Shown here one piece after another: positions 9,923-64,000 of a DNA stretch of 64,000 nt (positions are counted from its first letter, which is position 1; every line of letters starts with the position of its first letter). Below the pieces are notes generated by a model. That model was not told where the DNA came from and did not search any database. It saw only the letters and a program-made list of their open reading frames with translations. The DNA comes from Squalus acanthias (Eukaryota): assembly GCA_030390025.1 (NCBI GenBank), contig CM059431.1, positions 145,268,001-145,332,000 on the forward strand, read 5' to 3'. Made by a program: the position numbers and the translations under genes.

Positions 9923-10367
9923 GTGAGCCATTGTAACCTGTTTGTTGTTAATCGGTGTTAATTATCTCCTTGTTCTTACTGCCTGTTGGTTAACGTAACT
10001 CGTTTTCTGGATGTCAGCATTACACAGTCAGTAGTGACTGGACCTACTAGTGAACCGCCTGTCCGCACTTCCGTGTTCTCCTTAATATGATCAAGTTAAT
10101 GATGTTATAAAGCTCTTTGAAGCTCCAACACAAGGATTTTAGCGGACTTTCAGACCGTCTTGTCACCCCGTGCAGAGTGAGCGCTGCAGCAGCTCATTAA
10201 CATGTGTGGGTGGGTTTCCCAGGTAATGGCTCCAAAACTAACTCTCTTCTCACACTGCTCCGTGTGGATAATCACACTGAATGGAGTGAAATGCTCTCCA
10301 CAGGTATCTCCATATATATTTCAATCAGACATTGGAACATTATTTATCTCCTCTCTCTTTATTACAG

Positions 10368-11287
10368 CGAACTTGGTGACAATGGTGATTATCTCCCGAG
10401 GAAACTGCGGCCTTTCCAAGTGTATCTCTGTCTACATGGTGGCCATGGCAACAGCAGATCTACTGGTCATGATCTTCAATGTAATGGTGTATTATATCTT
10501 CAGTTATCACTTTCCACTTTCATTCCTGTTCCACACTCCCGTCTGTAAGTTCATTCTATACATCACCACTGTCAACCTCGAATTGTCTGTCTGGTTCACC
10601 GTCTCCTTCACATTTGACCGATTTGTAGTTATCTGCAGCCAGAAGTTTAAAACAAAGTATTGCACCAAGAAAACCGCGGCCGCGATTATAACTACGTTCT
10701 CTGTTCTGATCTTGTTAAATAACATTCCCTTGATGTTTGCATATAAACCTCAGCAAATAATTAACAAGGTGCAGTGGGGCTGCCGGCCAAGTGTGGCCTT
10801 CTTTACCTCACCTCCAGGTGCAGCGTACTTCTCGTTTCACACAGTCTGGCTAGTTTGGCTTCCTTTTACTTTAATCGCTTTGTGTAATTCTTTGACAGTC
10901 AGACGTATTTTAGTGGCCAGCAGAGCCCGCCAAGGACTCCGTGCTCAGAGGAGTGAGAATCAGTGTGATCCAGAGATGGAGAGCAGAAGGAAATCCATCA
11001 TTTTACTCTTCGCTATATCGGGCAGTTTTATACTGTTGTGGTTGACAGCTGTAGTGAGTTTTGCAACTACCGGACTGACAAACATCAATTATTACCAAGG
11101 TGACCGCACAAACCCAGCCTATATCGCCACTGAAACCGGAGCCATGCTGAAGCTTTTGAGCTCCTGTATAAACCCGTGTATTTTTGCAGCTACCCAGAGG
11201 AAATTCAGAGAAGAGCTGAAGAAATTGCTGAAATCTCCCTGGACACTGATTCTAAGACTGGTTAACAATGAAAGAAATACGAACTAG
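10368..11287 (+). CDS. GPR139/GPR142-like class A GPCR, coding exon 2 (spliced protein 329 aa)
   Basis: Acceptor ctctctctttattacag|cg restores GIP-A-N in TM1; MATADLL (TM2), FTFDRF (TM3), disulfide Cys pair (PVCKF/WGCRP), LPFTLI (TM5), FILLWLT (TM6), SSCINPCIF (TM7), helix 8 KFREEL; uninterrupted to TAG. Confidence 0.92.
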
Positions 11288-21720: not shown

Positions 21721-22560
21721 CACAATGGCATGGGTGTGGGGATTAAATCCCTGTTGCAATGGGAGGCTCTTTGCGCCTGTTACTGAGGCCCATATGCTGC
21801 CTTTGGCCGATACTACAATGGGGCTGGTGTGGGGAATGAAACCATGTTGTACTGGGAGTCTCTCTGAGTCTGTTGCTGAGGTCCATGTGCTGCCTTTGGC
21901 CGATACTACAATGGGGCTGGTGTGGGGAATGAAACCATGTTGTACTGGGAGTCTCTCTGAGTCTGTTGCTGAGGTCCATGTGCTACCTTTGGCCGATACT
22001 ACAATGTTGCTGCTGTGGGGAATGAAACCATGTTGTACTGGGAGTCTCTCTGAGTCTGCTGCTGATGTCGATGTGCTGCCTTTGGCCGATACTACAATGG
22101 GGCTGGTGTGGGGAATCAATCCATGTTGTACTGGGTGTCTCTCTGAGTCTGTTGCTGAGGCCCATGTGCTGCCTTTGGCCGACACTACAATGGGGCTGGT
22201 GTGGGGAATGAAACCATGTTGTACTGGGAGTCTCTCTGAGTCTGTTGCTGAGGTCCATGTGCTGCCTTTGGCCGATATTACAATGGGGCTGGTGTGGGGA
22301 ATGAAACCATGTTGTACTGGGAGTCTCTCGGAGTCTGTTGCTGAGGCCCATGTGCTGCCTTTGGCCGACACTACAATGGGGCTGGTGTGGGGAATGAAAC
22401 CATGTTGTACTGGGAGTCTCTCTGAGTCTGTTGCTGAGGTCCATGTGCTGCCTTTGGCCGATATTACAATGGGGCTGGTGTGGGGAATGAAACCATGTTG
22501 TACTGGGAGTCTCTCGGAGTCTGTTGCTGAGGCCCATGTGCTGCCTTTGGCCGATACTGC
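21721..22560. repeat. 93-bp (31-codon) minisatellite, ~9 copies
   Basis: ctttggccga at 21801, 21894 and onward; near-identical units, no internal indels seen; open frames on both strands. Confidence 0.95.
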
Positions 22561-24166
22561 AATGCCGTCCCAGCACAGTGTTAGAGTTTGAAAATGACAC
22601 CCCGGGAAATGCTGGGTAGATTCAGTTTATTGCAGAATGACTGGAACCAAGTGAACTCAGAAAGTCCACCAGTGGGTGAAAGCCCTTTGCTCCGGGCTGT
22701 AAAAGCCAACATTCCCCTCTCGCAATCACTGGCCATGGCGGGAGCGGCTCGGCTTTGCTCAGAGTGGCCGGAGATCAGTGAATTCGGCGAAGAGGATCTG
22801 AGACCCATTGATGCTGGGGCTGAATTTCCATCAATCGACACTGGACCTCAAGGTCCCATTCAGCTGTGGACAGACTCCAAGAGCTGTGCCCATGGGTCGG
22901 GGATTTCTGGGACTATCGCCTTTTGTCCGGAATGGTCTGTCCGGAATGTTGCCTCTCTTTAAAGAGCCGGGAAAGAATCCTTCATTACCTTGCACTCCCT
23001 CCGTGGTCTGTGGGATCTACAGCCCGATCCTCTGCTGGGATCCAGTGCGTCGTCTCACGGGAGCAGTCACAACCATCAAGGCCTTTCTCACAGTTTTACT
23101 CCTGAGCCCTCAGCCCCATGGGATTAACTCTATGAACAGTAAGTTCAGGAATCTAATCCTTGTTAATCAGTAGTATTTCTCTATTTGGAGTTCCAGCTCC
23201 TACTCACTCCCCTAGTTTACCAGGAGTTCACTGATCAGATGTCCCTTCATTTCTTTGCGATGGTTGTTATTTCCACCATCCTGTGATCGCCTGGTCTGCA
23301 GCAGCGGTCGCGGTTTGTGGTTATAATGCTTTGTGTTCCAGCTGAATATTACGTTTGAATTTATATATTTCCAGTAATTGTTTGTAAATTATATTGAATA
23401 CAGCTGACATCTGATTCCGCTCCCGAGATCCCCCTCGCCAATTAACCCGATGAGATTAAATGTAAAATTCCATCGATTGCTCCCTGGGGCCGCTGTAGTA
23501 ACTCATCAAATTGGCTCGGTGCATCACATGGTCCTAGCCTCATGGCGGGATGGTTTCAGCGCTCCACACTGCAATGGAATGTGTGTTAGGATGTATGTAA
23601 GGCAATCCGCTTCTTTATTGTCTCTCGAATATGAACAAGTTACAGAACCAGCCAAGGATTCGCTTTAAGGGACTTTTATCTGTAACTGCACCGTCCCTGC
23701 GAGGTACTCCGGCTTGGCCTGGACCGCACAGTTAGACTGTGAATGGAGGCTCAGTCTAGTGTCAGGGGCGATAGTGATTGAAATGACAATCGGGAGAGAT
23801 GTATGATGGACGGCTGATCCAATGTCGCCGGTTTTACATTATCGCACAAAGTTAATATCCTCCTATATCAGTGCCTGGGTGTCTGTAGTGGTGGGGATCG
23901 CTCTCCGTGTCCATTCCCGATACTGAATCCGAGCGACCCTCCTCCCCGCGGCGCCTTGACAACGCCTGACTGAAGTATGCTGGAAGGATGGTCACTCTCA
24001 GTCCTTCTATAGTGAGTGTAGAATCTAACATGTCTTTTGAACAAAATGTCGACAACGCTCTCCTGTATTACAAATACTGGGAACACATCTCAACATTTCC
24101 CCACAATAAGCTGTGAGATTTATCTGAGTGTCACCGTTACTGACATTCTGCCCCTTTTTCTCACAG

Positions 24167-25312: not shown

Positions 25313-25713
25313 CAAGTTGTTGTTGTAGTATAATTGATCAGAGATTGTTTGCTGAGCTCAGTCATTAAATCAAGTTGTTGTTGTAGAGTGATTGATCAGA
25401 GATTGTTTGCTGAGCTCAGTCATTAACTCAAGTTGTTGTTGTAGTTTAATTGATCAGAGATTATTTGCTGAGCTCAGTCAATAACTCAAGTTGTTGTTGT
25501 AGTGTAATTGATCAGAGATTGTTTGCTGAGCTCAGTCAATAACTCAAGTTGTTGTTGTAGTGTAATTGATCAGAGATTGTTTGCTGAGCTCAGTCAATAA
25601 CTCAAGTTGTTGTTGTAGTGTAATTGATCAGAGATTGTTTGCTGAGCTCAGTCAATAACTCAAGTTGTTGTAGTGTAATTGATCAGAGATTGTTTGCTGA
25701 GCTCAGTCAATAA
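25313..25713. repeat. 58-bp minisatellite, 7 copies
   Basis: Units start at 25313, 25371, 25429, 25487, 25545, 25603 and 25661; contains the palindromes tgatca and ctgagctcag. Confidence 0.95.
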
Positions 25714-26400: not shown

Positions 26401-27486
26401 AAAGAACAGTCATGACTAAGTTTCAGCAGTTGAGTAGAACATGTGGGCATCAGCGTTAACTGCCTCACACCGCAGGTACTGGAATGAGTCGCTCAGTTTA
26501 ATTAATAGTTAAAGTTTTCTTTAGTGCCGAAACAATGTGTTACAATGGTGGTTAGTTGTTATTTGTATTTTAACTTTTATAAAATTAGGCAATACAGAAT
26601 TATATCGATTCCCACGTAGCGGGAGTGAGAGCAATGTATAAAACGAGCTGTTTGTAATGAGTCTTTGAATTTTTAAAAGCCTAAGATACTGAGCTGAGAA
26701 CCGTAAACTTTTGACTCCATCACCAACAACCATCATCAAATGTGGCTGTAATTTGTGCCTTTTAAGTGTGTGTTTAATGCTATTGCATGTACTGCGTGCT
26801 CAATAAACCGATGACACCTCACTACAAATTACAACCTTATTGAAAACCTTACTCTAACAATAGCCTCAGTGCTTTAAATGTGAATGGGCTTCATTTATTA
26901 ATTGTGATGAAGGGCGCCCTTTACCCGTCACTTTCGAACGTCCCGGATCATCCTGAGTTTTTCCAAAAGCCAAACGCCACATGGTTTCAGTCCCCGTGGA
27001 CCCCAAGCTCTACTAATCAGCTGTCATCCAGCTCCTGTGGGAAGTGATGGTGAGTTCTGGGCTATTCTGTTTAAGAGGCACGTTCACATTTCACTGGATT
27101 GAGCTGACCAACTCTATTTAAGGCACGAGTCAGATAGCAAGCAGGGATTTTAATTCCATCAGTCAGCGATGCATCTCAACCCAGCTCCAATCGTGAGAAT
27201 GCGATGTGTAATCAACCACATCATCTAATATCAACATGTAAAATTGAAAGCAAAAGCATGAAAAAGTTAACCATTGGTGTTCAGGAAAGACAGGGAAGGA
27301 AACAAAGGAGGTGGGGTTGCAGTATTGATTAACAAGAATATTACAGTGCTGGAGAGAAAGGATGTCCTGAAAGGGTCAAGGACAGAATCTATTTGCCATG
27401 ATGCGGAGATGCCACTCTTGTACTGGAGTGGACAAAAGTGAGAAGTCGCACAACACCAGGTTATAGTCCAACAGCTTTATTTGAAA

Positions 27487-27524
27487 TCACAAGCTTTCGG
27501 AGCGGCTGCTCCTTCGTCAGGTGA
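27487..27524 (-). ncRNA. Minimal type I hammerhead ribozyme motif (3' pLTR)
   Basis: Minus strand UCAC-CUGACGA-A-GGAGC-agcc-GCUCC-GAAA-GC-UU-GUGA: complete core, 5-bp stem II, 4-bp stem I, palindromic loopless stem III. Confidence 0.85.
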
Positions 27525-27838
27525 AGTAAAGGAATACAAATCGACAAAGCATATATAGATAGAGAACAATGCATGTGTAACGTACAATGGCAGACGACTA
27601 CATTTAATCCTCCTGACTGCCTTTTGTCACACCTCGGCAGATAAACAATCAGGTCAGCCAGGAAGGCACCACATCAAAGACATAGCAAGATACAACTGAA
27701 ACAATGAGGTGGGGTTACAGGGGTCTAATGTGTCAAAAGCTGCAGTCGGTATGGAAAACGATAAACTTAAAAATGTTTACTTATTTTTACTGGAAATCAC
27801 ATCTGAACAAGCCAACGACGATTCGAGTCTGGATGACT

Positions 27839-30517
27839 CTACGTCATGTATCGTGACATGAACCCAAGATCCCGGTTGAGGCCGTCCTCATGAGTGCGGA
27901 ACTTGGCTATCAGTTTCTGCTCGATGATTTTGCGTTGTCGTGTGACTCTAAGGCCGCCTTGGAGAACGTTTACCCACAGATCCGAGTTTGAATGTCGTTG
28001 ACTGCTGAAGTGTTTCCCGACTGGGATGTAACAATCCTGCCTGGCGATTGTTGAGCGGTGTCCGTTCATACGTTGCCTCAGTGTCTGCATGGTCTCGCCG
28101 ATGTACCATGCCGCGGTGCATTCTTTCCTGCAACGTATCAGGTAGACAACGTTGGCCGAGTCACATGAGTATGTACCATGTACCTGGTGGGTAGTGTCCT
28201 CACGTGTGATGATGGTATCTGTGTTGATGATCTGGCATGTCTTGCAGAGGTTGCCGTGGCAGGGTTGTGTGGTGTCGTGGTCGCAGTTATCCTGAAAGCT
28301 GGGTAATTTGCTGCAAACGATGGTACTTCTGAGGTTTGGCGGCTGTTTGAAGGCAAGTAGTGGAGGCGTGGGGATGGCCTTAGCGAGGTGTTCGTCGTCA
28401 TCGATGACATGTTGAAGGCTGCGAAGAACATGGCGTAGTTTCTCCGCTCCGGGGAAGTACTGGACGACTTAGGGTACCCTGTTGGTTGTGTCCCGTGTTT
28501 GCCTTCTGAGGAGGTCTATGCGATTTTTCACTGTGGCCCGTCGGAACTGTCGATCGATGAGTCGAGCGTCATATCCCGTTCTTACGAGGGCGTTTTTCAT
28601 CGTCCGTAGGTGTCCATCGCGTTCCTCCTCGTCTGAGCAGATCATGTGTATTCGCAGGGCTTGTCCATAGGGGATGGCTTCTTTAACGTGGTTAGGGTGG
28701 AAGCTGGAGAAGTGGAGCATCGTGAGGTTATCCGTGGGCTTGCGGTAGAGTGAAGTGCTGAGGTGTCCGTCTTTGATGGAGATTCGTGTGTCCAGGAATG
28801 AAACCGATTCTGAGGAGTAGTCCATGGTGAGTTTGATGGTGGGATGGAACTTGTTGATGTTATCGTGTAGTCTTTTCAGTGATCCTTTGCCGTGGTTCCA
28901 AAGGAAGAAAATGTCGTCGATGTATCTGGTGTACAGCGTTGGCTGGAGGTCCTGTGCAGCGAAGAAGTCTTGCTCGAACTTGTGCATGAAGATGTTGGCG
29001 TATTGGGGTGCGAATTTGGTCCCCATGGCTGTTCCGTGTGTTTGGGTAAAAAAATGGTTGTCGAAGGTGAAGACATTGTGGTCAAGGTTGAAGCGGATGA
29101 GTTGTAGGATGGCGTCTGGAGATTGGCTGTTGTTGGTGTTGAGTACTGAGGCTGTCACACCGATGCCGTCATCGTGGGGGATACTGGTGTAGTGTGCCGA
29201 TAAGTCCATCGTGGCGAGGAGTGTTCCTGGTTCAACTGGTTCGTGGGTGCTGAGTTTCTGTAAGAAGTCTGTGGTGTCGCGGCAGAAGCTGGGGGCTCCC
29301 TGTACAATGGGTTTCAGGATGCCCTCGACGTATCCAGAGAGGTTCTCACACAGGTCTCCGTTGCCTGATACGATAGGACGTCCGGGTGTGTTGGCTTTGT
29401 GTATCTTTGGGAGGCAGTAGAAGTCTCCCACGCGGGGAGTACGTGGGGTGAGAGCGCGTAGGATGCTTTGAAGGTCTGGATCAAAGGTCTTGATCAGTCT
29501 ATTGAGTTGGCGGGTGTGTTCTTTGGTCGGATCTGCGGGTAACTGTCTGTATTGTTCCAGGTTGTCCAGTTGTCGGTATGCTTCTTTGCAATAGTCCATT
29601 CTGTTCTGTATGACGATGGCTCCTCCTTTGTCCGCTGGTTTGATGACGATGTTGCGGTTGGTCTTGAGAGCGTGGATGGCGTTGCGTTGTGCTCGGGTGA
29701 CATTCTGGACTGTCTTGTGAGTGCGGCTGATGAATCTGGCGTTGATGCATCTCCTGACAGCTTGAGCATACATGTCAAACTTAGGGCAGCGACCCTCCGG
29801 AGGGGTCCAAATTGACCTGTTTTTCTTCAGTTGCTGCACTGCGGGTCCCTCTGTCTGCTGTTCTGGATCATTGATTGTCTCATTGGGTTTGTTGCTGACA
29901 TCTTGGGATTTGTGGAAGTATTCCCGGAGCCTCATTCTCCTGATGAGTTCCTCTGTGTCTGCCGCGAGACCGATGGGGTCCATTTTGGTGGTGGGGCAGA
30001 ACTTGAGCCGTAGGGCGAGAACTTCGATTTCGTCTGGTTGAAGGGTGTGGTCGGACAAGTTGACAATGGACTTCCCTGTGGTTGCAACCGTGTTACCGGG
30101 GGAGGCTTGGTTGCTACTGGTGGTGATGCCAAGTTTCTCAAGCTTCCTGTTCTTGATGCGCATGTAGGCAGCATAGTTCCGTTGCCTCGTCTGTTTGGCG
30201 GTGTCTCGTAGCTGGTCTGCTGTGTCCTGAGCACAGGCTGAGAGCATGGACTCTATATTGGTTTCGAGGTTGCGGTGTTTGGTGTAGAGCCTGTGTACGA
30301 GATGGTTGAGGAGTGTGCGAGAGGTACGATGGCAGAGTCTCTCAGCGTAGTCTGTGTTGTATGTCGACTTGAGTGGGTTCGTGATCTGTAGTCCTTTCGG
30401 GATCTTGTCTGCTTTCTTGCATCTCTGTAGATACTTGATGTCGGTGTCGATATGCGCGATCTTCTTTGCGATTCTCTCCACTTTGAGCCGGCAGTTTGTG
30501 GTGTCGATAGTGGCTAT
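27839..30517 (-). pseudogene. Penelope-like polyprotein (RT + Cys-rich linker + GIY-YIG endonuclease), ~892 codons, start ATG>ATA and one in-frame TAA
   Basis: IKPADKGG, LPKIHK..PGRPIVS, TMDLSAHYTSIPH, GTAMGTKFAPQYANIFM, RYIDDIF; TAA at 28469-28471, then the same frame continues through CHGNLCKTC, NVVYLIRC..WYIGET and GLNRD to the stop at 27839. Confidence 0.93.
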
Positions 30518-30604
30518 GATGCGGAGATGCCGGTGTTGGACTGGGGTGGACAAAAGTGAGAAGTCGCACAACACCAGGTTATAGTCCAACAGTTTTATTT
30601 GAAA

Positions 30605-30642
30605 TCACAAGCTTTCGGAGCGGCTGTTCCTTCGTCAGGTGA
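30605..30642 (-). ncRNA. Minimal hammerhead ribozyme motif (5' pLTR)
   Basis: Same motif with one stem II mismatch (GGAAC/GCUCC), about 90 nt upstream of the ORF start. Confidence 0.8.
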
Positions 30643-31376
30643 AGGAAAGGAATACAAATCGACAAAGCTTATATAGATAGAGAACAATGCATGTGAAGCG
30701 TACAATGGCAGACGACGACATTTAATCCACCTGACTGCCTTTTGTCACACCACGGCAGATAAACAATCAGGTCAGCCAGGAAGGCATCAAAGACATAGCA
30801 AGATACAACTGAGACAATGAGGTGGGGTTACAGGGGGTCTAATGTGTCAAAAGCTGCATTCGGTATGGAAAGCGATAAACTTTAAAATGTTTGCTTATTT
30901 TTACTGGAAATCACATCTGAACAAGCCAACGATGACTCCAAGGCTGCCTTCGAGACACACGACAACGCACAATCATCGAGCAGAAACTGATAGCCAAATT
31001 CCGCAGTTATGAGGACGGCCTCAACCGGGATCTTGGGTTCATGTCACGATACATGACGTAGAGTCATCCAGACTCGAGTCGTCGTTGGCTTGTTCAGATG
31101 TGATTTCCAGTAAAAATAAGTAAAAATTTTAAAGTTTATCGTTTTCCATACCGACTGCAGCTTTTGACACATTTGACCCCCTGTAACCCCACCTCATTGT
31201 CTCAGTTGTATCTTGCTATGTCTTTGATGTGATGACTTCCTGGCTGACCTGATTGTTTATCTGCCGAGGTGTGACAAAAGGCAGTCAGGAGGATTAAATG
31301 TAGTCGTCAGCCATTGTTCGTTACACATGCATTGTTCTCTATCTATATATACTTTGTCGATGTGTATTCCTTTACT

Positions 31377-31407
31377 TCACCTGACGAAGGAGCATCCGCT
31401 CCGAAAG
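31377..31407 (+). ncRNA. Truncated hammerhead motif at the end of the inverted segment
   Basis: tcac-ctgacga-a-ggagc-atcc-gctcc-gaaag, immediately followed by target DNA. Confidence 0.7.
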
Positions 31408-31459
31408 AATCTATTTGGTTAGAGTTAAAAAAAACAGTAGAGGTGCCATTACACTAATA

Positions 31460-34589: not shown

Positions 34590-35245
34590 CACCTGGGTGG
34601 GTGTGTCCCAGTGTGGGGTGTTTCTCGATTGGTGGGTCTTTGAGTGGGTGGGTCTTTGGGTGAGGTGGTCTCTGGGTGGGTCTCTCCCAGTGTGGGGTGT
34701 TTCTCGATTGGTGGGGTCTTTGATTTGGGTGGGTCTTTGGGTGAGGTAGGTCTCTGGGTGGGTCTCTACCAATGTGAGGGTGTTTCTCGATTGGTGGAGC
34801 TCTCCCAGTGTGGGGTGTGGCTCGGTTGGTGGGTCCCTCCCAGTGTGGGATGTGTCTCGGTTGATGTGTCTTTGGATAGGTGGATCTTTGGGCTGAGGTG
34901 GTCTCTGGGTGGGTCCTCTCCAGTGTGGGGAGGTCTATGGGCTGGGTCCTCTCCCAGTGTGGTGTGGTGTCTCGGTTGATGTGTCTTTGGGTAGGTGGGT
35001 CTTTGGGTGAGGTGGCCTCTGGGTGTGTCTCTCCCAGTGTGGGGTGGTCTCTGTGTGTGTCTCTACCAGTGTGGGGTGGTCTCTGGGTGGGTCTCTCCCA
35101 GTGTGGGGTGTGTCTCGGTTGGTGGGTCTTTGGGTGAGGTGGTCTCTGGGTGTGTCTCTCCCAGTGTGGGGTGTGTCTCGGTTGGTGGGTCCCTGGTTGG
35201 GTGGGTGGGTTTCTGTGTGGAGTGGTGTCAGGATGGGTATGTCCC
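34590..35245. repeat. G/T-rich degenerate tandem repeat
   Basis: Recurring tctctcccagtgtggggtg and gtctttgggtgaggtggtctctgggtg modules with strong strand asymmetry. Confidence 0.9.
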
Positions 35246-35597: not shown

Positions 35598-36335
35598 CTT
35601 CCTCCAGAGGTGACTGAACGAGACATCATCCAGAGGGGACTGACCGTGGCCCTCTCCACAGGGGACTGAACGATACATCCTCCAGAGGGGACTGACCGTG
35701 GCCCTCTCCACAGGGGACTGAGCGAGACCTTCTCCAGAGGTGACTGACCGAGACCTTCTGCAGAGGTGACTGACCGAGACCTCCTCCAGAGACTGACCGA
35801 GACATTCTCCAGAGGGGACTGACCGAGACCCCCTCCAGAGGGGACTGACCGAGACCTTCTCCAGAGGGGACTGACCGAGACCTTCTCCAGAGGGGACTGA
35901 CCGAGACCTCCGCCAGAGGGGACTGACCGAGACCTCCTCCAGAGGGGACTGACAGAGACCTCCTCCAGAGGAGACTGACCGAGACCTCCTCCAGAGGGGA
36001 CTGACCGAGACCTCCTCCAGAGGGGACAGACCGAGACCTTCTACAGAGGGGACTGACCGAGACCTCCTCCAGAGGGGACTGACCGAGACCTCCTCCAGAG
36101 GAGACTGACCGAGACCGCCTCCAGAGGGGACTGGCCGAGACCTCCTCCAGAGGGGACTGACCGAGACCTCCTCCACAGGGGACTGACCGAGACCTCCTCC
36201 AGAGGGGACTGACCGAGACCTCCTCCAGAGGGGACTGACCGATACCTCCTCCAGAGGAGACTGACCGAGACCTCCTGCAGAGGAGACTGACCGAGGCCTC
36301 CTCCAGAGGGGACTGACCGAGGACTCCTCCAGAGG
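35598..36335. repeat. 26-bp minisatellite, ~28 copies
   Basis: Unit gagacctcctccagaggggactgacc; ccgagacc at 35901 and 35927. Confidence 0.95.
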
Positions 36336-37294: not shown

Positions 37295-37600
37295 GGACAA
37301 CAACAATAACCTGCATTTATATAGCGGCTTTAATATAATGAAAATTCACAAACAATTCTCAGACAAAGTTTGACACTGAGCCACATAGAGAGATTTTAGG
37401 AGAGATGAACAAAAAGCTCAGTAATAGAGGAAAGTTTTAAAAAGCGTTTAAAAGAGGAGGAGAGAGAGGTAGAGCTGCGAACAGGGTTTAGGGAGGGAAT
37501 ACCAGAGTTTAGGGCCTTGGCAGCTGAAGTCAATGTGGAGCAAAGAAATTCGATGATGTGCAAAAAGGTCAGAGGAGTGGAAGATCTCGGAGGCTGTAGG
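37295..37600 (-). mobile_element. L2-type LINE 3' end
   Basis: (caa)n + ctgcatttatatagcg tail shared with the SINE 3' ends; gggagggaataccagagtttagggcc reads LWYSLP on the minus strand. Confidence 0.7.
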
Positions 37601-40600
37601 GACACTTGCTACAGAGTCTGACTCCTCACTGGGAGAGACACACACTGTACACAGGGACACTTGTAAGAGAGTCTCACTCCTCACTGGGAGAGACACAGAC
37701 TGTACACAGTGACACTTGTTACAGAGTCTGACTCCTCACTGGGAGACACACACTGTACACAGGGACACTTGTTACAGAGTCTGACTTCTCACTGGGAGAG
37801 ACACACACTGTACACAGGGACACTTGTTACAGATTCTGACTCCTCACTGGGAGAGACACACAGTGTACACAAGGACACTTGTTACAGAGTCTGACTCGTC
37901 ACTGGGAGATACACACTGTACACAGGGACACTTGTTACAGAGTCTGACTCCTCACTGGGAGAGACATACACTGTACACAGGGACACTTGTTACAGAGTCT
38001 GACTCCTCACTGGGAGAGACACACACTGTACACAGGGACACTTGTTACAGAGTCTGACTCCTCACTGGGAGAGACACACACTGTACACAGCGACACTTGT
38101 TACAGAGTCTGACTCCTCACTGGGAGAGACACACACTGTACACAGGGACACTAGTTTCAGATTCAGACTCCTCACTGGGAGAGACACGCACTGTACACAG
38201 GGACACTTGTTACAGAGTCTGACTCCTCACTGGGAGAGACAGACACTGTACACAGGGCCACTTGTTACAGAGGCCGACGCCTCACTGGCAGAGACACACA
38301 CTGTACACAGGAACACTTGTTACAGAGTCTCACTCCTCACTGGGAGAGACACACACTGTACACAGGGACATTTGTTACAGAGTCTCACTCCTCACTGCGG
38401 GAGACACACACTGTACACAGGGACACCTGTTACAGAGTCTGACTCCTCACTGGGAGAGACACACACTGAACACAGGGACACTTGTTACAGAGTCTGACTC
38501 GTCACTGGGAGATACACACTGTACACAGGGACACTTGTTACAGAGTCTGACTCCTCACTGGGAGAGACACACACTGTACACAAGGACACTTGTTACAGAG
38601 TCTGACTCCACACTGGGAGAGACACACTGTACATAGGGACACTTGTTACAGAGTCTGACTTCTCACTGGGAGATACACACACTGTACACAGGGACCCTTG
38701 TTACAGAGTCTGACTCCTCACTGGGAGAGACACACACTGTACACAGGGACACTTGTTACAGAGTCTGACTCCTCACTGGGAGAGACACACACTGTACACA
38801 GGGACACTTGTTACAGAGTCTGACTCCTCACTGGGAGTGACACACACTGTACACAGCGACACTTGTTACAGAGTCTGACTCCTCACTGGGAGAGACACAC
38901 ACTGTACAGAGGGACACTTGTTACAGAGTCTGACTCCTCACTGGGAGAGACACACACTGTACACAGGGACACTAGTTACAGAGTCAGACTCCTCACTGGG
39001 AGAGACACGCACTGTACACAGGGACACTTGTTACAGAGTCTGACTCCTCACTGGGAGAGACACACACTGTACACAGGGCCACTTGTTACAGAATCCGACT
39101 CATCACTGGGAGAGACACACACTGTACACAGGGACACCTGTTACAGAGTCTGACTCCTCACTGGGAGAGACACACACTGTACACGGGGACACTTGTGAGA
39201 GAGTCTGACTCCTCACTGGGAGAGTCACACACTGTACACTGGGACACTTGTTACAGAGACTGACTCCACACTGGGAGAGACACACACTGTACAAAGGGAC
39301 ACTTGATACAGAGTCTGACTCCTCACTGGGAGAGCCACACACTGTACACAGGAACACTTGTTACAGAGTCTGACTCCTCACTGGGGACACACACTGTACC
39401 CAGGGACATTTGTTACAGAGTCTGACTCCTCACTGGGAGAGTCACACACTGTACATAGAGACACTAGTTAAGAGTCTGACTCCTCACTGGGAGAGACACA
39501 CACTGTACACAGGAAAACCAGTTACAGAGTCAGACTCCTCACTGGGAGAGACACACACTGAACACAGGGACACTTGTTACAAAGTCTGACTCCTCACTGG
39601 GAGAGACACACACTGTACACAAGGACACTTGTTACAGAGTCTGACTCCTCACTGGGAGATACACACTGTGCACAGGGACACTTGTTACAGAGTCTGACTC
39701 CTCACTGGGCGAGACACACACTGTACACAAGGACACTTGTTACAGAGTCTGACTCCTCACTGGGAGAGACGCACACTGTACACAGCGACACTTGTTACAG
39801 AGTCTGACTCCTCACTGGGAGAGACACACACTGAACAAAGGGACACTTGTTACAGAGTCTGACTCGTCACTGGGAGCTACACACTGTACACAGGGACACT
39901 TGTTACAGAGTCTGACTCCTCACTGGGAGCGACACACACTGTACACAAGGACACTTGTTACAGAGTCTGACTCCACACTGGGAGAGACACACTGTACACA
40001 GGGACAATTGTTACAGAGTCTGACTCCTCACTGGGAGATACACACACTGTACTCAGGGACACTTGTTACAGAGTCTGACTCCTCACTGGGAGAGACACAC
40101 ACTGTACACAGGGACACTTGTTACAGAGTCTGACTCCTCACTGAGAGAGACACACACTGTACACAGGGACACTTGTTACAGAGTCTGACTCCTCACTGGG
40201 AGAGACACGCACTGTACACAGCGACACTTGTTACAGAGTCTGACTCCTCACTGGGAGAGACACACACTGTACAGAGGGACACTTGTTACAGAGTCTGACT
40301 CCTCACTGGGAGAGACACACACTGTACACAGGGACACTTGTTACAGACTCTGACTCCTCACTGGGAGAGACACGCACTGTACACAGGAAAACCAGTTACA
40401 GAGTCAGACTCCTCACTGGGAGAGGCACACACTGTACATAGAGACACTAGTTAAGAGTCTGACTCCTCACTGGGAGAGACACACACTGTACACAGGAAAA
40501 CCAGTTACAGAGTCAGGACTCCTCACTGGGAGAGGCACACACTGTACACAAGGACACTTGTTACAGAGTCTGACTACTCACTGGGAGATACACACTGTGC

Positions 40601-43600
40601 ACAGGGACTCTTGTTACAGAGTCTGACTCCTCACTGGGAGAGACACACACTGTACACAAGGACACTTGTTACAGAGTCTGACTCCTCACTGGGAGAGACA
40701 CACACTGTACACAGCGACACTTGTTACAGAGTCTGACTCCTCACTGGGAGAGACACACACTGTACACAGGGACACTAGTTACAGAGTCAGACTCCTCACT
40801 GGGAGAGACACACACTGTACACAGGGACACTTGTTACAGAGTCTGACTCCTCACTGGGAGAGACACACACTGTACACAGGACACATGTTACAGAGTCTGA
40901 CTCCTCACTGGGAGAGACACACACTGTACACAGGGACACTTGTTACAGAGTCTGACTCCTCACTGGGAGAGACACACACTGTACACATGGACACTTGTTA
41001 CAGAGTCTGACTCCTCACTGGGAGAGACACACACTGTACACAGGGACACTAGTTACAGAGTCTGACTTCTCACTGGGAGAGACACACACTGTACACAGGG
41101 ACACTTGTTACAGAGTCTGACTCTCACTGGGAGAGACACACACTGTACACAGGGACACTTGTTACAGAGTCTGACTCCTCACTGGGAGAGACACACTGTA
41201 CACAGGGACACTTGTTACAGAGTCTGACTCCTCACTGGGAGAGACACACACTGTACACAGGGACACTTGTTACAGAGTCTGACTCCTCACTGGGAGAGAC
41301 ACACACTGTACACAGGGACACTTGTTACAGAGTCTGACTCCTCACTGGGAGAGACACACACTGTACACAGGGACACTTGTTACAGAGTCTGACTCCTCAC
41401 TGGGAGATACACACTGTACACAGGGACACTTGTTACAGAGTCTGACTCCTCACTGGGAGAGACACACACTGTACACAAGGACACTTGTTACAGAGTCTGA
41501 CTCCACACTGGGAGAGACACACTGTACACAGGGACACTTGTTACAGAGTCTGACTCCTCACTGGGAGATACACACACTGTACACAGGGACACTTGTTACA
41601 GAGTCTGACTCCTCACTGGGAGAGACACACACTGTACACAGGGACACTTGTTACAGAGTCTGACTCCTCACTGGGAGAGACACACACTGTACACAGGGAC
41701 ACTTGTTACAGAGTCTGACTCCTCACTGGGAGAGACACACACTGTACACAGGGACACTTGTTACAGAGTCTGACTCCTCACTGGGAGAGACACACACTGT
41801 ACACAGGGACACTTGTTACAGAGTCTGACTCCTCACTGGGAGAGACACACACTGTACACAGGGACACTTGTTACAGAGTCTGACTCCTCACTGGGAGAGA
41901 CACACACTGTACACAGGGACACTTGTTACAGAGTCTGACTCCTCACTGGGAGAGACACACACTGTACACAGGGACACTTGTTACAGAGTCTGACTCCTCA
42001 CTGGGAGAGACACACACTGTACACAGGGACACCAGTTACAGAGTCTGACTCCTCACTGGGAGAGACACACACTGTACACAGGGACACTTGTTACAGAGTC
42101 TGACTCCTCACTGGGAGAGACACACACTGTGCACAGGGACACTTGTTACAGAGTCTGACTCCTCACTGGGAGAGACACACACTGTACACAGGGACACTTG
42201 TTACAGAGTCTGACTCCTCACTGGGAGAGACACACACTGTACACAGGGACACTTGTTACAGAGTCTGACTCCTCACTGGGAGAGACACACACTGTACACA
42301 GGGACACTTGTTACAGAGTCTGACTCCTCACTGGGAGAGACACACACTGTACACAGGGACACTTGTTACAGAGTCTGACTCCTCACTGGGAGAGACACAC
42401 ACTGTACACAGGAACACTTGTTACAGAGTCTGACTCCTCACTGGGAGAGACACACACTGTACACAGGGACACTTGTTACAGAGTCTGACTCCTCACTGGG
42501 AGAGACACACACTGTACACATGGACACTTGTTACAGAGTCTGACTCCTCACTGGGAGAGCACACACTGTACACAGGAACACTAGTTACAGAGTCTGACTT
42601 CTCACTGGGAGAGACACACACTGTACACAGGGACACTTGTTACAGAGTCTGACTCCTCACTGGGAGAGACACACACTGTACACAAGGACACTTGTTACAG
42701 AGTCTGACTCCTCACTGGGAGATACACACTGTGCACAGGGACACTTGTTACAGAGTCTGACTCCTCACTGGGAGAGACACACACTGTACACAAGGACACT
42801 TGTTACAGAGTCTGACTCCTCACTGGGAGAGACACACACTGTACACAGGGACACTTGTTACAGAGTCTGACTCCTCACTGGGAGAGACACACACTGTACA
42901 CAGGGACACTTGTTACAGAGTCTGACTCCTCACTGGGAGAGACACACACTGTACACAGGGACACTTGTTACAGAGTCTGACTCCTCACTGGGAGAGACAC
43001 ACACTGTACACAAGGACACTTGTTACAGAGTCTGACTCCTCACTGGGAGAGACACACTGTACACAGGGACACTTGTTACAGAGTCTGACTCCTCACTGGG
43101 AGAGACACACACTGTACACAGGGACACTTGTTACAGAGTCTGACTCCTCACTGGGAGAGACACACACTGTACACAGGGACACTTGTTACAGAGTCTGACT
43201 CCTCACTGGGAGAGACACACACTGTACACAGGGACACTTGTTACAGAGTCTGACTCCTCACTGGGAGAGACACACACTGTACACAGGGACACTTGTTACA
43301 GAGTCTGACTCCTCACTGGGAGAGACACACACTGTACACAGGGACACTTGTTACAGAGTCTGACTCCTCACTGGGAGAGACACACACTGTACACAGGGAC
43401 ACTTGTTACAGAGTCTGACTCCTCACTGGGAGAGACACACACTGTACACAGGGACACTTGTTACAGAGTCTGACTCCTCACTGGGAGAGACACACACTGT
43501 ACACAGGGACACTTGTTACAGAGTCTGACTCCTCACTGGGAGAGACACACACTGTACACAGGGACACTTGTTACAGAGTCTGACTCCTCACTGGGAGAGA

Positions 43601-46600
43601 CACACACTGTACACAGGGACACTTGTTACAGAATCTGACTCCTCACTGGGAGAGACACAGCTGTACACAGGGACACTTGTTACAGAGTCTGACTCCTCAC
43701 TGGGAGAGACACACACTGTACACAGGGACACTTGTTACAGAGTCTGACTCCTCACTGGGAGAGACACACACTGTACACAGGGACACTTGTTACAGAGTCT
43801 GACTCCTCACTGGGAGAGACACACACTGTACACAGGGACACTTGTTACAGAGTCTGACTCCTCACTGGGAGAGACACACACTGTACACAGGGACACTTGT
43901 TACAGAGTCTGACTCCTCACTGGGAGAGACACACACTGTACACAGGGACACTTGTTACAGAGTCTGACTCCTCACTGGGAGAGACACACACTGTACACAG
44001 GGACACTTGTTACAGAGTCTGACTCCTCACTGGGAGAGACACACACTGTACACAGGGACACTTGTTACAGAGTCTGACTCCTCACTGGGAGAGACACACA
44101 CTGTACACAGGGACACTTGTTACAGAGTCTGACTCCTCACTGGGAGAGACACACACTGTACACAGGGACACTTGTTACAGAGTCTGACTCCTCACTGGGA
44201 GAGACACACACTGTACACAGGGACACTTGTTACAGAGTCTGACTCCTCACTGGGAGAGACACACACTGTACACAGGGACACTTGTTACAGAGTCTGACTC
44301 CTCACTGGGAGAGACACACACTGTACACAGGGACACTTGTTACAGAGTCTGACTCCTCACTGGGAGAGACACACACTGTACACAGGACACTTGTTACAGA
44401 GTCTGACTCCTCACTGGGAGAGACACACACTGTACACAGGGACACTTGTTACAGAGTCTGACTCCTCACTGGGAGAGACACACACTGTACACAGGGACAC
44501 TTGTTACAGAGTCTGACTCCTCACTGGGAGAGACACACACTGTACACAGGGACACTTGTTACAGAGTCTGACTCCTCACTGGGAGAGACACACACTGTAC
44601 ACAGGGACACTTGTTACAGAGTCTGACTCCTCACTGGGAGAGACACACACTGTACACAGGGACACTTGTTACAGAGTCTGACTCCTCACTGGGAGAGACA
44701 CACACTGTACACAGGACACTTGTTACAGAGTCTGACTCCTCACTGGGAGAGACACACACTGTACACAGGGACACTTGTTACAGAGTCTGACTCCTCACTG
44801 GGAGAGACACACACTGTACACAGGGACACTTGTTACAGAGTCTGACTCCTCACTGGGAGAGACACACACTGTACACAGGGACACTTGTTACAGAGTCTGA
44901 CTCCTCACTGGGAGAGACACACACTGTACACAGGACACTTGTTACAGAGTCTGACTCCTCACTGGGAGAGACACACACTGTACACAGGGACACTTGTTAC
45001 AGAGTCTGACTCCTCACTGGGAGAGACACACACTGTACACAGGGACACTTGTTACAGAGTCTGACTCCTCACTGGGAGAGACACACACTGTACACAGGGA
45101 CACTTGTTACAGAGTCTGACTCCTCACTGGGAGAGACACACACTGTACACAGGGACACTTGTTACAGAGTCTGACTCCTCACTGGGAGAGACACACACTG
45201 TACACAGGGACACTTGTTACAGAGTCTGACTCCTCACTGGGAGAGACACACACTGTACACAGGGACACTTGTTACAGAGTCTGACTCCTCACTGGGAGAG
45301 ACACACACTGTACACAGGGACACTTGTTACAGAGTCTGACTCCTCACTGGGAGAGACACACACTGTACACAGGGACACTTGTTACAGAGTCTGACTCCTC
45401 ACTGGGAGAGACACACACTGTACACAGGGACACTTGTTACAGAGTCTGACTCCTCACTGGGAGAGACACACACTGTACAAAGGGACACTTGTTACAGAGT
45501 CTGACTCCTCACTGGGAGAGACACACACTGTACACAGGGACACTTGTTACAGAGTCTGACTCCTCACTGGGAGAGACACACACTGTACACAGGGACACTT
45601 GTTACAGAGTCTGACTCCTCACTGGGAGAGACACACACTGTACACAGGGACACTTGTTACAGAGTCTGACTCCTCACTGGGAGAGACACACACTGTACAC
45701 AGGGACACTTGTTACAGAGTCTGACTCCTCACTGGGAGAGACACACACTGTACACAGGGACACTTGTTACAGAGTCTGACTCCTCACTGGGAGAGACACA
45801 CACTGTACACAGGACACTTGTTACAGAGTCTGACTCCTCACTGGGAGAGACACACTGTACACAGGGACACTTGTTACAGAGTCTGACTCCTCACTGGGAG
45901 AGACACACACTGTACACAGGGACACTTGTTACAGAGTCTGACTCCTCACTGGGAGAGACACACACTGTACACAGGGACACTTGTTACAGAGTCTGACTCC
46001 TCACTGGGAGAGACACACACTGTACACAGGGACACTTGTTACAGAGTCTGACTCCTCACTGGGAGAGACACACACTGTACACAGGGACACTTGTTACAGA
46101 GTCTGACTCCTCACTGGGAGAGACACACACTGTACACAGGACACTTGTTACAGAGTCTGACTCCTCACTGGGAGAGACACACACTGTACACAGGACACTT
46201 GTTACAGAGTCTGACTCCTCACTGGGAGAGACACACACTGTACACAGGGACACTTGTTACAGAGTCTGACTCCTCACTGGGAGAGACACACACTGTACAC
46301 AGGGACACTTGTTACAGAGTCTGACTCCTCACTGGGAGAGACACACACTGTACACAGGGACACTTGTTACAGAGTCTGACTCCTCACTGGGAGAGACACA
46401 CACTGTACACAGGGACACTTGTTACAGAGTCTGACTCCTCACTGGGAGAGACACACACTGTACACAGGGACACTTGTTACAGAGTCTGACTCCTCACTGG
46501 GAGAGACACACACTGTACACAGGACACTTGTTACAGAGTCTGACTCCTCACTGGGAGAGACACACACTGTACACAGGGACACTTGTTACAGAGTCTGACT

Positions 46601-52600: not shown

Positions 52601-52687
52601 TGTTACAGAGTCTGACTCCTCACTGGGAGAGACACACACTGTACACAGGACACTTGTTACAGAGTCTGACTCCTCACTGGGAGAGAC
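37599..52687. repeat. 55-bp satellite array, ~275 copies, open-ended at the gap
   Basis: Consensus gggacacttgttacagagtctgactcctcactgggagagacacacactgtacaca; diverged at the left edge, homogeneous internally. Confidence 0.99.
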
Positions 52688-58605: not shown

Positions 58606-59364
58606 GTGGGCAAAAGATCTAATTTGAATTGGTGTTATGAAAGGACTATTATAAAAACACATTCAATGAATGTATGTGTAAAACTGCTCCAAAAATGTTC
58701 GCAAATTCTGAAGCACAACTTATCTAGGGAATGATTAGGAGGAAAAGTCCATTTGGCCCCACAAGGCTGTCCCTGTTACAAAAATGAACCCACCCATCCC
58801 TCCTCTGTGTATCCACACAAACACGTTCAATTGTATCCAGTCCCCAATTACACTGCTCTATTAATGTCCTTCCCTGGTAACTTGTTCCCTGCTCTATTAC
58901 CCTTTGGTAAAAAAAAATCCTGATATCCCTTCACTTCTGATTTTCAATATTCTGCATTATTAATTATTTTAGTCATTGTTTCCTGCAATAATGTTGTGAA
59001 TTCCATTAAAACGTTTCAATACTGATGTCTTTTGCTCAAACAAAATACATCAAACCCCTCAACCTAAACTCCTAATATCTTGCATCATCTTTTATTCCCC
59101 ATTACCTTCAAAATGGCGGTATCCTTTAACTTTGATCAGGTGACTATAGAAGTGTAGGTAATACCCCAGATAACCTGCCCGAGTCCTGAAATGACCGTAA
59201 TTTAACACTAACCTATTCACAGTCTGTCTCTCTCTCTGCACACAATACCCCAGATAATATGTCCAAATCCTGATACAATAACAGTGGAACGGCTGTTTAG
59301 AGATGGTGAACAAAAATGAGAAGTCGCGCAACACCAGGTTATAGTCCAACAGTTTTATTTAAAA

Positions 59365-59402
59365 TTACGAGCTTTCGGAGCTGCTGCCCCTTCGCCAGGT
59401 AG
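59365..59402 (-). ncRNA. Hammerhead motif variant (core A6>G)
   Basis: Minus strand UAC-CUGGCGA-A-GGGGC-agca-GCUCC-GAAA-GC-UC-GUA. Confidence 0.7.
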
Positions 59403-59554
59403 AGGTACAGTGAGGGAATCTATTACACAGTATATATACACAGAGAGCAATTTGTCTACAGAGATACAATCTGTTAGGAAGGCATTACATCAAAGACACA
59501 TCAGAGGACAGCTAAGACAATGAGGTGGGTCACAGGGGGTCCAACGTGTCAAAT

Positions 59555-61783: not shown

Positions 61784-64000
61784 GTTGCCATCTGCAGTTC
61801 AGCTTTAACTTTTTTTTGGTTCTTTGGTTTTTTTTGTGTTTTTTTAAAACTGGAAAGACCGACAACGATGTCGAGTCACGTTCTGTAGCGTGACATGAAA
61901 CCCGAAATCCTATTGAGGCCGTCCTCATGGGTGCGAACTTGGCTATCAGTTTCTGTTCGATGATTTTGCGTTGTCGTGTGTCTTGAAGGCCACCTTGGAG
62001 AACGCTAACCCGCGGATCCGAGGCTGAATGTCCTTGACTGCTTGAAGTGTTGCCCGACTGGGACGTAACAATCCTGCCTGGCGATTGTATGCGCAGTGTC
62101 CGTTCATACGTTGTCTCAGTGTCTGCATGGTCTCGCCGATGTACCATGCTCCAGGCATCCTTTCCTGCAACATAGAGGTAGGACATCGTTGGCCGAGTCA
62201 CATGAGTATGTACCATGTACCTGGTGGGTAGTGTCCTCACGGTGATATTGTATCTGTGTTGATGATCTGGCCTGTCTTGCAGAGGTTGCCGTGGCAGGGT
62301 TGTGTGGTGTTTTGGTCGCTGTTCTCCTGACAGCTGGGTAATTTGCTGTGAACTATGGTACTTTTGAGGTTAGGCGGCTGCTTGAAGGCGAGTAGTGGAG
62401 GGCATGGGGATGGCCTTAGCAAGGTGTTCGTCGTCATCGATGACATGTTGAAGGCTGCGAAGAACATGGCGAAGTTTCTCCGCTCCGGGGAAGTACTGGA
62501 CGACGTGGGTACTCTGTTGGTTGTGTCCCCGTGTTCGTCCTTCTGAGGAGGTCTATGCGGTTTTTCGCTGTGGCCCGTCGGAACTGTCGATTGACGAGTC
62601 GAGCGTCATATCCGTTCTTACGAGTGCGTCTTTCTGCGTCCGTAGGTGTCATGCGTTCCTCCTCGTCTGAGCAGATCCTGTGTATTCGCAGGGCTGTGTC
62701 CATGGGGATGGCTTCTTTAACGTGGTTAGGGTGGAAGCTGGAGATGTGGAGCATCGTGAGGTTGTCCGTGGGCTTGCGGTAGAGTGAAGTGCTGAGGTGT
62801 CCGTCTTTGATGGAGATTCGTATGTCCAAGAATGAAACCGATTCTGAGGAGTAGTCCATGGTGAGTTTGATGGTGGGATGGAACCTGTTGATGTTATCGT
62901 GTAGTCTTTCAGTGATCCTTCGCCGTGGGGCGAAAGGAAGAAAATGTCGTCGATGATCTGGTTGTACAGCGTTGGTTGGAGGTCCTGTGCAGCGAAGAAG
63001 TCTTGCTCGAACTTGTGCATGAAGAAATTGGCTATTGGCATGCGAATTTGGTCCCCATGCTGTTCGTGTGTTGGGTAAAAAACTGGTTGTCGAAGGTGAA
63101 GACATTGTGGTCAAGGATGAAGCGGATGAGTTGTAGGATGGCGTCTGGAGATTGGCTGTTGTTGGTGTTTGAGCACTGAGGCTGTCGCAGCGATGCCGTC
63201 CTCGTGGGGGATATTGGTGTAGAGTGCCGATACATCCATCGTGGTGAGGAGTGCTCCTGGTTCAACTGGTCCATGGGTGCTGAGTTTCTGCAAGAAGTCT
63301 GTAGTGTCGCGACAGAAGCTGGGGGTTCCCTGTACGATGGGTTTCAGGATGCCCTCGACGTACCCAGAGAGGTTCTCACACAGGGTTCCGTTGCCTCATA
63401 CGATAGGACGTCCGGGTGTGTTGGCTTTGTGTATCTTTGGGATGCAGTAGAAGTCTCCTACGCGGGGAGTACGTGGGATGAGAGCGCGTAGGATGTTTTG
63501 AAGGTCTGGATCGAAGGCCTTGATCAGTCTATTGAGTTGGCGGGTGTGTTCTTTGGTCGGATCTGCGGGTAACTGTCTGTAGTGTTCCTGGTTGTCCAGT
63601 TGTCGGAATGCTTCTTTGCAATAGTCCATTCTGTTCTGTATGACGATGGCTCCTCCTTTGTACGCTGGTTTGATGACAATGTTGCGGCTGGTCTTGAGAG
63701 CGTGGATGGCGTTGCGTTGTGCTCGGATGACATTCTGGACTGTCTTGTGTGCGGCTGATGAATCTGGCGTTGATGCATCTTCTGACAGCTTGAGCATACA
63801 TTTCAAGCTTAGCCCAGCGACCCTCCGGAGGGGTCCAATTTGACTCTTTCTTCTTCGGTTGCTGCACTGCGGTTCCCTCTGTCTGCTGTTCCGGATCATT
63901 GATTGTCTCATTGGGTTTGTTGCTGACATCTTGGGATTTGTGGTAGTATTCCCGGATCCTCATTCTACTGATGAATTACTCTGTGTCTGCCGCGAGACCG

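Follow-up and report, generated by a model that had tools for sequence, protein, structure and literature searches.

The window, i.e., the whole 64,000-nucleotide stretch of Squalus acanthias DNA analysed here, contains a Penelope-like element (PLE) on its minus strand. The PLE open reading frame (ORF; 27839..30517(-)) specifies a reverse transcriptase (RT), a CX4CxxC linker and a putative C-terminal GIY-YIG-like domain, and the motifs DKG, YIDD, CHGNLCKTC (the linker, residue 782), VYLIRC and YIGET were recognized in it. The frame 30604-27839(-), which carries a single stop, matched RVT_1 in Pfam (E=4e-9). GIY-YIG was not called by Pfam on the C-terminal piece from the window; the homolog P0034 matches GIY-YIG, and the alignment with full-length homologs extends to residue 919. 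The closest named relatives (best of 3375 homologs; 7999 candidates scored) were shark proteins of 83-91% identity. The ORF is dead: its start codon position reads ATA, and a premature stop occurs at 28471-28469. In the alignment with a full-length homolog, Met1 falls at 30517; at this codon the tail copy described below still has ATG. According to the part of bioRxiv 10.1101/2021.04.23.441226 used here, a CX2-5CxxC linker between RT and endonuclease (EN) marks Neptune and Nematis. Judged from its encoded protein, the host element is probably a Neptune-type PLE, with a CX4CxxC linker common to Neptune and Nematis.

The RT-EN ORF is flanked by two pseudo-LTRs (pLTRs), and hammerhead motifs sit in both. 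The 3′ pLTR, including its hammerhead and tail, occupies 27396..27838(-) and is a direct repeat of 30938-30518 (93.5%). By repeat comparison, the 5′ pLTR lies at 30518..30938(-) and is 5′-truncated at an inversion junction. There it adjoins an inverted, 5′-truncated copy (30936..31407(+); inverted repeats, 95.8% to the 3′ copy), which consists of the last ~127 nt of the ORF and a pLTR, and ends inside a hammerhead. At its 3′ end the element carries a tail (27396..27490(-)) that, by repeat comparison, duplicates the 5′ UTR and stops at the start codon (ATG 27399-27397). The whole is bounded by a 12-bp target-site duplication. Its left part (27384..27395(+)) overlaps the element end by microhomology, its right part (31406..31417(+)) is the same 12-mer, and the window has no occurrence of this 12-mer other than those at 27384 and 31406. 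In runs X17 and X3, contigs connect 27392 to 31420-31438, giving the element-free junction. The locus is one decayed insertion, in which tail, 3′ pLTR, ORF, 5′ pLTR and inverted pLTR lie inside the 12-bp duplication. The three pLTR copies differ at 12/328, 15/323 and 20/324 positions; therefore, the insertion is not recent. Twin-priming is an idea for the origin of inversions.

Two further PLE remnants were found. A solo pLTR of a diverged subfamily (59305..59553(-)) has a tail ~30 nt shorter than that of the main copy; its identity to the 3′ pLTR is 82% in the hammerhead, 84% in the tail and 59% just upstream. A search for its target-site duplication gave a single 6-mer, which was dismissed as chance. 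A second, frameshifted copy of the PLE ORF (61878..64000(-), 92.6% identity) has a different 3′ flank: the sequence after its stop is unrelated to that of the first copy, and no hammerhead or tail was found behind it. Since a contig end of run X18 has the same alternative flank, this copy is assigned to a separate subfamily. Elsewhere, the window holds a 55-bp satellite (37598-52687; ~276 copies, 96% match, 15 kb), a 368-aa open frame assigned to the rhodopsin-family GPCRs (10181-11287(+); Pfam 7tm_1, E=3e-24), and, at 21733-22564, 25313-25713, 35600-36335 and 34631-35218, minisatellites (93, 58 and 26 bp) together with a degenerate GT-rich array.

The four hammerhead motifs of the window

The motif in the 3′ pLTR (27487..27524(-)) is intact. 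In the letters of the window's minus strand, the RNA of 27524-27487(-) reads UCAC-CUGACGA-A-GGAGC-AGCC-GCUCC-GAA-AGCU-U^GUGA. It has a stem I of 4 bp and a stem II of 5 bp, and matches the minimal type I consensus in the part of PMC4209133 compared here. One unpaired A lies between A9 and G10.1, a loopless AGCU palindrome stands where stem III would be, and the cut is predicted between 27491 and 27490, at a CUU triplet.

A loose core pattern gave two matches in the window against 0.08 expected, and 0/100 shuffles reached two. A hammerhead search was among the checks named by the first-pass annotation. A covariance model in which three window copies were included found all four copies at E<=2e-5, with no further match below E=0.25, while a strict hammerhead descriptor recovered 1/4. 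Rfam gave no hammerhead family at E<=5 for the whole window or at E<=10 for 251 nt, and presumably lacks a model for the minimal form. The 27487 motif also departs from the canonical type I hammerhead of non-LTR retrozymes: its stem I has 4 bp instead of 6 bp with loop 1-loop 2 contacts, and the hammerheads flank a 2.7-kb ORF within no tandem array, where a canonical retrozyme requires short non-coding tandem repeats. The sequence evidence supports the 27487 motif as a genuine minimal type I hammerhead (min-HHR) of PLE pLTRs.

The other three hammerheads of the window are damaged, and that at 27487 is the sole intact one. The first-pass annotation had assigned the full set of features to four sites; its coordinates were right and every feature was confirmed at 27487, but 30605, 31377 and 59365 each lack some. 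The degenerate 5′ hammerhead (30605..30642(-); predicted cut 30609/30608) has a stem II of GGAAC/GCUCC with an A-C mismatch, and an off-pathway 7-bp hairpin covers its catalytic core. It may be noted that within 30650-30620(-) two changes unique to this copy, compared with the other two, jointly perfect this hairpin; a templated (quasi-palindrome) mutation is possibly responsible, or chance. The truncated hammerhead (31377..31407(+)) has the 5′ strand of stem I, the core and stem II, and ends after GAAAG. The palindrome, the cleavage triplet and the 3′ strand of stem I are all missing, and without a cleavage site this copy cannot be a ribozyme. The diverged hammerhead of the solo pLTR (59365..59402(-)) has the core CUGGCGA (A6 to G), the triplet CUC, a stem II of GGGGC/GCUCC, and a 3-bp stem I (UAC/GUA). 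The latter holds the one two-sided stem change inside the window (C-G to U-A); stems in the 5′ and solo copies also show breaks. Taken over the four copies, the core CUGANGA...GAAA...UH in type I order is present at 27487 and 30605, carries A6G at 59365 and is incomplete at 31377. The extra unpaired nucleotide after A9 and the G10.1-C11.1 pair occur in 4/4 copies, and the AGCU palindrome without a monomeric stem III in 3/4.

We then considered folding energies, which leave out Mg2+ and tertiary contacts. In its local fold, the 3′ motif (27487) had a stem II probability of ~0.9 and a stem I probability of ~0.5, lower with more flank. For the 5′ motif (30605), the pairing probability of the hammerhead stems was 0.0 in three contexts, because its two changes favour the hairpin over the core. 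An active 3′:3′ dimer gave -23.3 kcal/mol vs -25.8 for the monomers, and an active 5′:3′ dimer -16.6 kcal/mol vs -22.2 for two monomers. In the predicted read-through transcript, the core of the 5′ motif was paired with the inverted pLTR copy in a long hairpin. In the MFE structure of the 3.5-kb unit, a weak test at that length, the two AGCU sequences were not paired together. By this modelling, only the 3′ motif could still fold, and it would have no competent partner in cis. The first-pass annotation took AAGCUU as the pairing palindrome. This has to be narrowed: under the standard hammerhead numbering, an active dimer pairs only the 4-nt AGCU, A14 and U17 of AAGCUU being core positions.

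Conservation in related elements

Relatives of the element were collected as 128 related PLE loci, namely the best 80 of 553 from metagenome contigs and all 48/48 from genome contigs. A full descriptor gave 29 matches in them, 27 on the sense strand; the sense matches fell in 23/128 loci, and 10 shuffles gave 0-1. Searching the same loci for core and stem II alone gave 39 distinct matches, 25 of which had a palindrome from A15.1, vs 1/41 in 20 shuffles. Stem I was at least 3 bp long in 24 of these 25 palindrome-bearing relatives. Among the 24, the palindrome was ATAT in 11, ACGT in six and AGCT in two, with others in the rest; U17 was the cleavage nucleotide in eight, the extra A was present in 22 and G10.1-C11.1 in 23. 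The catalytic core letters were invariant or nearly so, and palindrome and NUH triplet were kept across distant families.

The remaining 14/39 core matches include a group whose ending differs and is not palindromic, as well as a few that are probably due to chance. Nine loci, all on the plus strand, have CUGAUGA, a stem II of 4-5 bp that lacks the extra nucleotide, and GAAACC with no palindrome next to it (core search: L013:33, L030:1094, L041:3677, L043:3369, L044:3814, L045:2834, L048:2576, L063:5116 and L073:3463). This suggests another hammerhead variant or topology.

An alignment of 19 rows was made from three window copies and 16 relatives hand-picked from the descriptor matches; this choice in part selected for stems I and II. 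In this alignment 96.2% of cells pair, and 9/11 pairs show two-sided changes. None of 500 shuffles scored as high, and slid controls had 22-39% of cells paired. The covariation is drawn from distant families (~35-40% protein identity) in genomes other than that of the window. Core conservation and stem covariation, the lack of which across genomic copies the first-pass annotation had counted among its refuting conditions, were both found across related PLE families, not across copies of the window's genome. Conservation and covariation show family-level selection for the hammerhead fold, with a stem III that, as read from the sequences, would be formable only by two copies pairing via AGCU.

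In three assemblies with animal DNA (G001, G002 and G003), the pattern matched 105 times (19-65 each) vs 0 in the control. These assemblies, which include loci L082-L084, L096 and others, are filed as prokaryote and yet hold PLE ORFs; animal host DNA binned into prokaryote assemblies is the most likely source of this content. A 21-nt tail motif had no match in metagenome contigs and none in viral contigs, and a PLE protein search of the viral contigs gave 47 candidate stretches, none related. Copies ending at the cut numbered 0 in 41 relative rows, and 178 fetched loci of other families showed no truncation in stem III. The latter loci were fetched around intact motifs, a biased sample, and hence the end-at-cut test is weak.

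Cleavage, reverse transcription and the 3′ tail

The first-pass annotation had envisaged an RNA unit of ~3.1 kb beginning ~90 nt before the ORF, and in this it was accurate: the two predicted cuts lie 3118 nt apart, and the ancestral start codon is 91 nt after the cut. The predicted 5′ UTR (30518..30608(-)) accordingly spans 91 nt from hammerhead cut to start codon position, and no upstream ATG occurs within it. The insertion itself does not stop at the 3′ cut; its tail extends ~95 nt beyond, up to the start codon. Contigs with mixed flanks end at the equivalent place, 30516, with 18 cases in run X1 and 14 in run X3 among the loose ends listed. As this is seen in two runs, the tail end at the start codon is family-wide. 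A linear RNA running from cut to cut ends at CUU and cannot template a 95-nt tail, so that the template must have been either uncleaved there or religated. No pile-up of ends was listed in the four runs, which consist of contigs, where RNA ends and strand are invisible. The contigs of run X17 covered the hammerhead and tail bins but the upstream pLTR little or not at all, which by itself is no evidence.

We consider it highly probable that the locus holds the known min-HHR of a Neptune-type PLE in a cartilaginous fish, in one decayed insertion, with a dimer-type stem III and an RT start at or before the start codon. Two RNA copies would pair through the AGCU palindrome to form stem III, and cleavage would then occur in the dimer. 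It is probably slow or dependent on the element's protein, and the 3′ end of new insertions is probably fixed by something else. Such ends would come from reverse transcription that begins either at the start codon or slightly before it, ~60-95 nt downstream of the cut, and that copies an RNA continuous across the cleavage site.

It is rather unlikely that in active members of the family both hammerheads cut and the product is ligated to a circular RNA, with reverse transcription running from the start-codon site round the circle to give the tail and a more-than-unit cDNA. A circle is continuous across the cut and therefore fits the tail, and the differences among the three pLTR copies fit one template plus decay. 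Circular RNA is also put forward in the part of PMC4209133 used here. However, an uncleaved tandem transcript accounts for the same structure. Moreover, as far as the excerpted reports go, hammerhead mutants were without effect on insertion in vitro (PMC11167929), and Naiad PLEs spread without hammerheads (bioRxiv 10.1101/2021.04.23.441226).

That the motif persists as a signal with a structural or protein-binding role beside the RT start and the translation start, with no cleavage in vivo, seems to us improbable. The solo copy does conserve hammerhead and tail together. Low in vitro activity of min-HHRs, with other functions left open (PMC4209133), and the lack of reads ending at the site in the anole (PMC11167929), both taken from the available parts of these papers, point the same way. 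Against this stand the near-invariant core letters and the palindrome and NUH triplet kept across distant families. In addition, the anole motif is described in the same part of PMC11167929 as cleaving with protein and responding to C3/G8 changes.

The mechanism of the first-pass annotation, in which the hammerheads of both pLTRs in a single transcript form a dimer over a distance of 3.1 kb, so that a linear 3118-nt RNA starting 91 nt before the ORF is released, is very unlikely. Its geometry fits, including the leader free of upstream ATG, and the cut-to-ATG distance in three relatives (L078, L082 and L067) is similar, at 109, 110 and 123 nt. The low dimer activity of a schistosome min-HHR, reported in the part of PMC4209133 compared, also agrees. 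At this locus, such a release is not supported: the 5′ motif has a fold probability near zero and its dimer with the 3′ motif is less favourable than the monomers, the 5′ core is bound up with the inverted copy in read-through RNA, the ORF is broken, and the insertion runs past the 3′ cut. The MFE structure of the 3.5-kb unit, with the two AGCU apart, is a weak test in the same direction.

There is likewise only a slight chance that the single insertion records both template ends, the tailed end being the RT start on continuous RNA and the inverted end being priming on the 3′ end of hammerhead-cleaved RNA. The inverted copy ends (31406-31408(+)) 3 nt before the predicted cut, with a 2-nt overlap with the target duplication. 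This is a single case (n=1), the 2-nt target microhomology accounts for the inverted junction, and the biased sample of 178 loci of other families gave 0 stem III truncations. Tail-less ends of shark Neptune elements, if they clustered near the cut genome-wide, would be evidence of min-HHR cleavage in vivo and of a role in insertion.

Chance resemblance to a hammerhead, with which a motif of only 38 nt and the absence of an Rfam hammerhead would agree, is refuted by the shuffle controls, the pLTR position, the covariation and the 105 vs 0 control matches in three assemblies, and is given practically no weight.

Comparison with known systems

Min-HHRs in the pLTRs of metazoan PLEs were described in 2014 from 40 species of animals, whose genomes hold thousands of copies each (Cervera & De la Pena, PMC4209133; this and the following comparisons refer to the part of that paper used here). 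Pairs ~3 kb apart, and also inverted pairs, are reported there. Monomers showed no cleavage and dimers low cleavage, the latter in a schistosome min-HHR; dimer cleavage, precursor processing and circles are proposed, and other functions are left open. The motif of the window agrees with these min-HHRs in its type I topology, CUGANGA core, unpaired nucleotide after A9, G10.1-C11.1 pair, loopless palindromic stem III, NUH triplet, short stem I and AU-rich flanks. The layout is also the same, with one copy per pLTR ~3 kb apart and opposite-strand extras a few hundred bp off. The painted turtle motif has the loopless AGCU palindrome with U17, and the lamprey motif the stem I UCAC/GUGA, as at 27487. 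In contrast, stem II has 5 bp here vs 7-8 bp in the schistosome families, and three of the four window copies are damaged, unlike the published min-HHRs. The part of the published alignment that was compared is without cartilaginous fish. The first-pass assignment to the minimal type I hammerheads of PLE pLTRs is borne out by this consensus together with the covariation in related loci, and its loopless stem III of dimer-type design by the consensus and the palindrome kept in relatives. The same need for a dimer is inferred for the small PLE hammerheads that cleave as dimers (Lunse, Weinberg & Breaker, RNA Biol 14:1499, via the parts of PMC6765202 and PMC6466107 used), which are likened here by description only.

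In the Poseidon element PAc of Anolis carolinensis (Frangieh et al. 2024, PMC11167929, again in part), internal RT initiation explains the tails. Its hammerhead needs protein for cleavage and responds to C3/G8 changes, cleavage is dispensable for insertion (hammerhead mutants left insertion in vitro unchanged), and in the portion used no RNA-seq reads end at the hammerhead site. PAc and the present element share a pLTR hammerhead near the ORF start, a genomic tail passing the hammerhead, and two end positions ~30 nt apart (here, those of the main and the solo copy). However, in PAc the ORF starts inside stem II and RT 111-118 nt into the ORF; in the present element, the start codon follows the cut by 91 nt and the tail stops at this codon. 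The linker of the present protein is that of Neptune/Nematis; as PAc belongs to the Poseidon clade, its behaviour may not transfer.

The likeness to Neptune EN+ PLEs, as given in the excerpted bioRxiv 10.1101/2021.04.23.441226, covers an RT with DKG, the CX2-5CxxC linker and a putative C-terminal endonuclease. It extends to the insertion structure, since the partial-tandem pLTRs, the adjoining inverted 5′-truncated copy and the one-ended tail are all present at the locus. The tail-less end of Neptune is 30-40 nt short of the tailed end, vs ~94 nt here, and, unlike in the Neptune description, a clear 12-bp duplication and a non-microsatellite target were found.

Our literature search, which covers few subscription papers, gave no report of shark or elasmobranch PLE hammerheads. 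A 2026 preprint, by the part of it available, included one chondrichthyan in its survey of hammerhead retrozymes and PLEs, and therefore its tables may already hold such motifs. This decayed locus is a poor test of min-HHR cleavage in vivo, and a known motif class in a dead copy, with 1/4 motifs intact, makes the case an ordinary one. The class was already described in 2014; the addition made here is one shark-like example.
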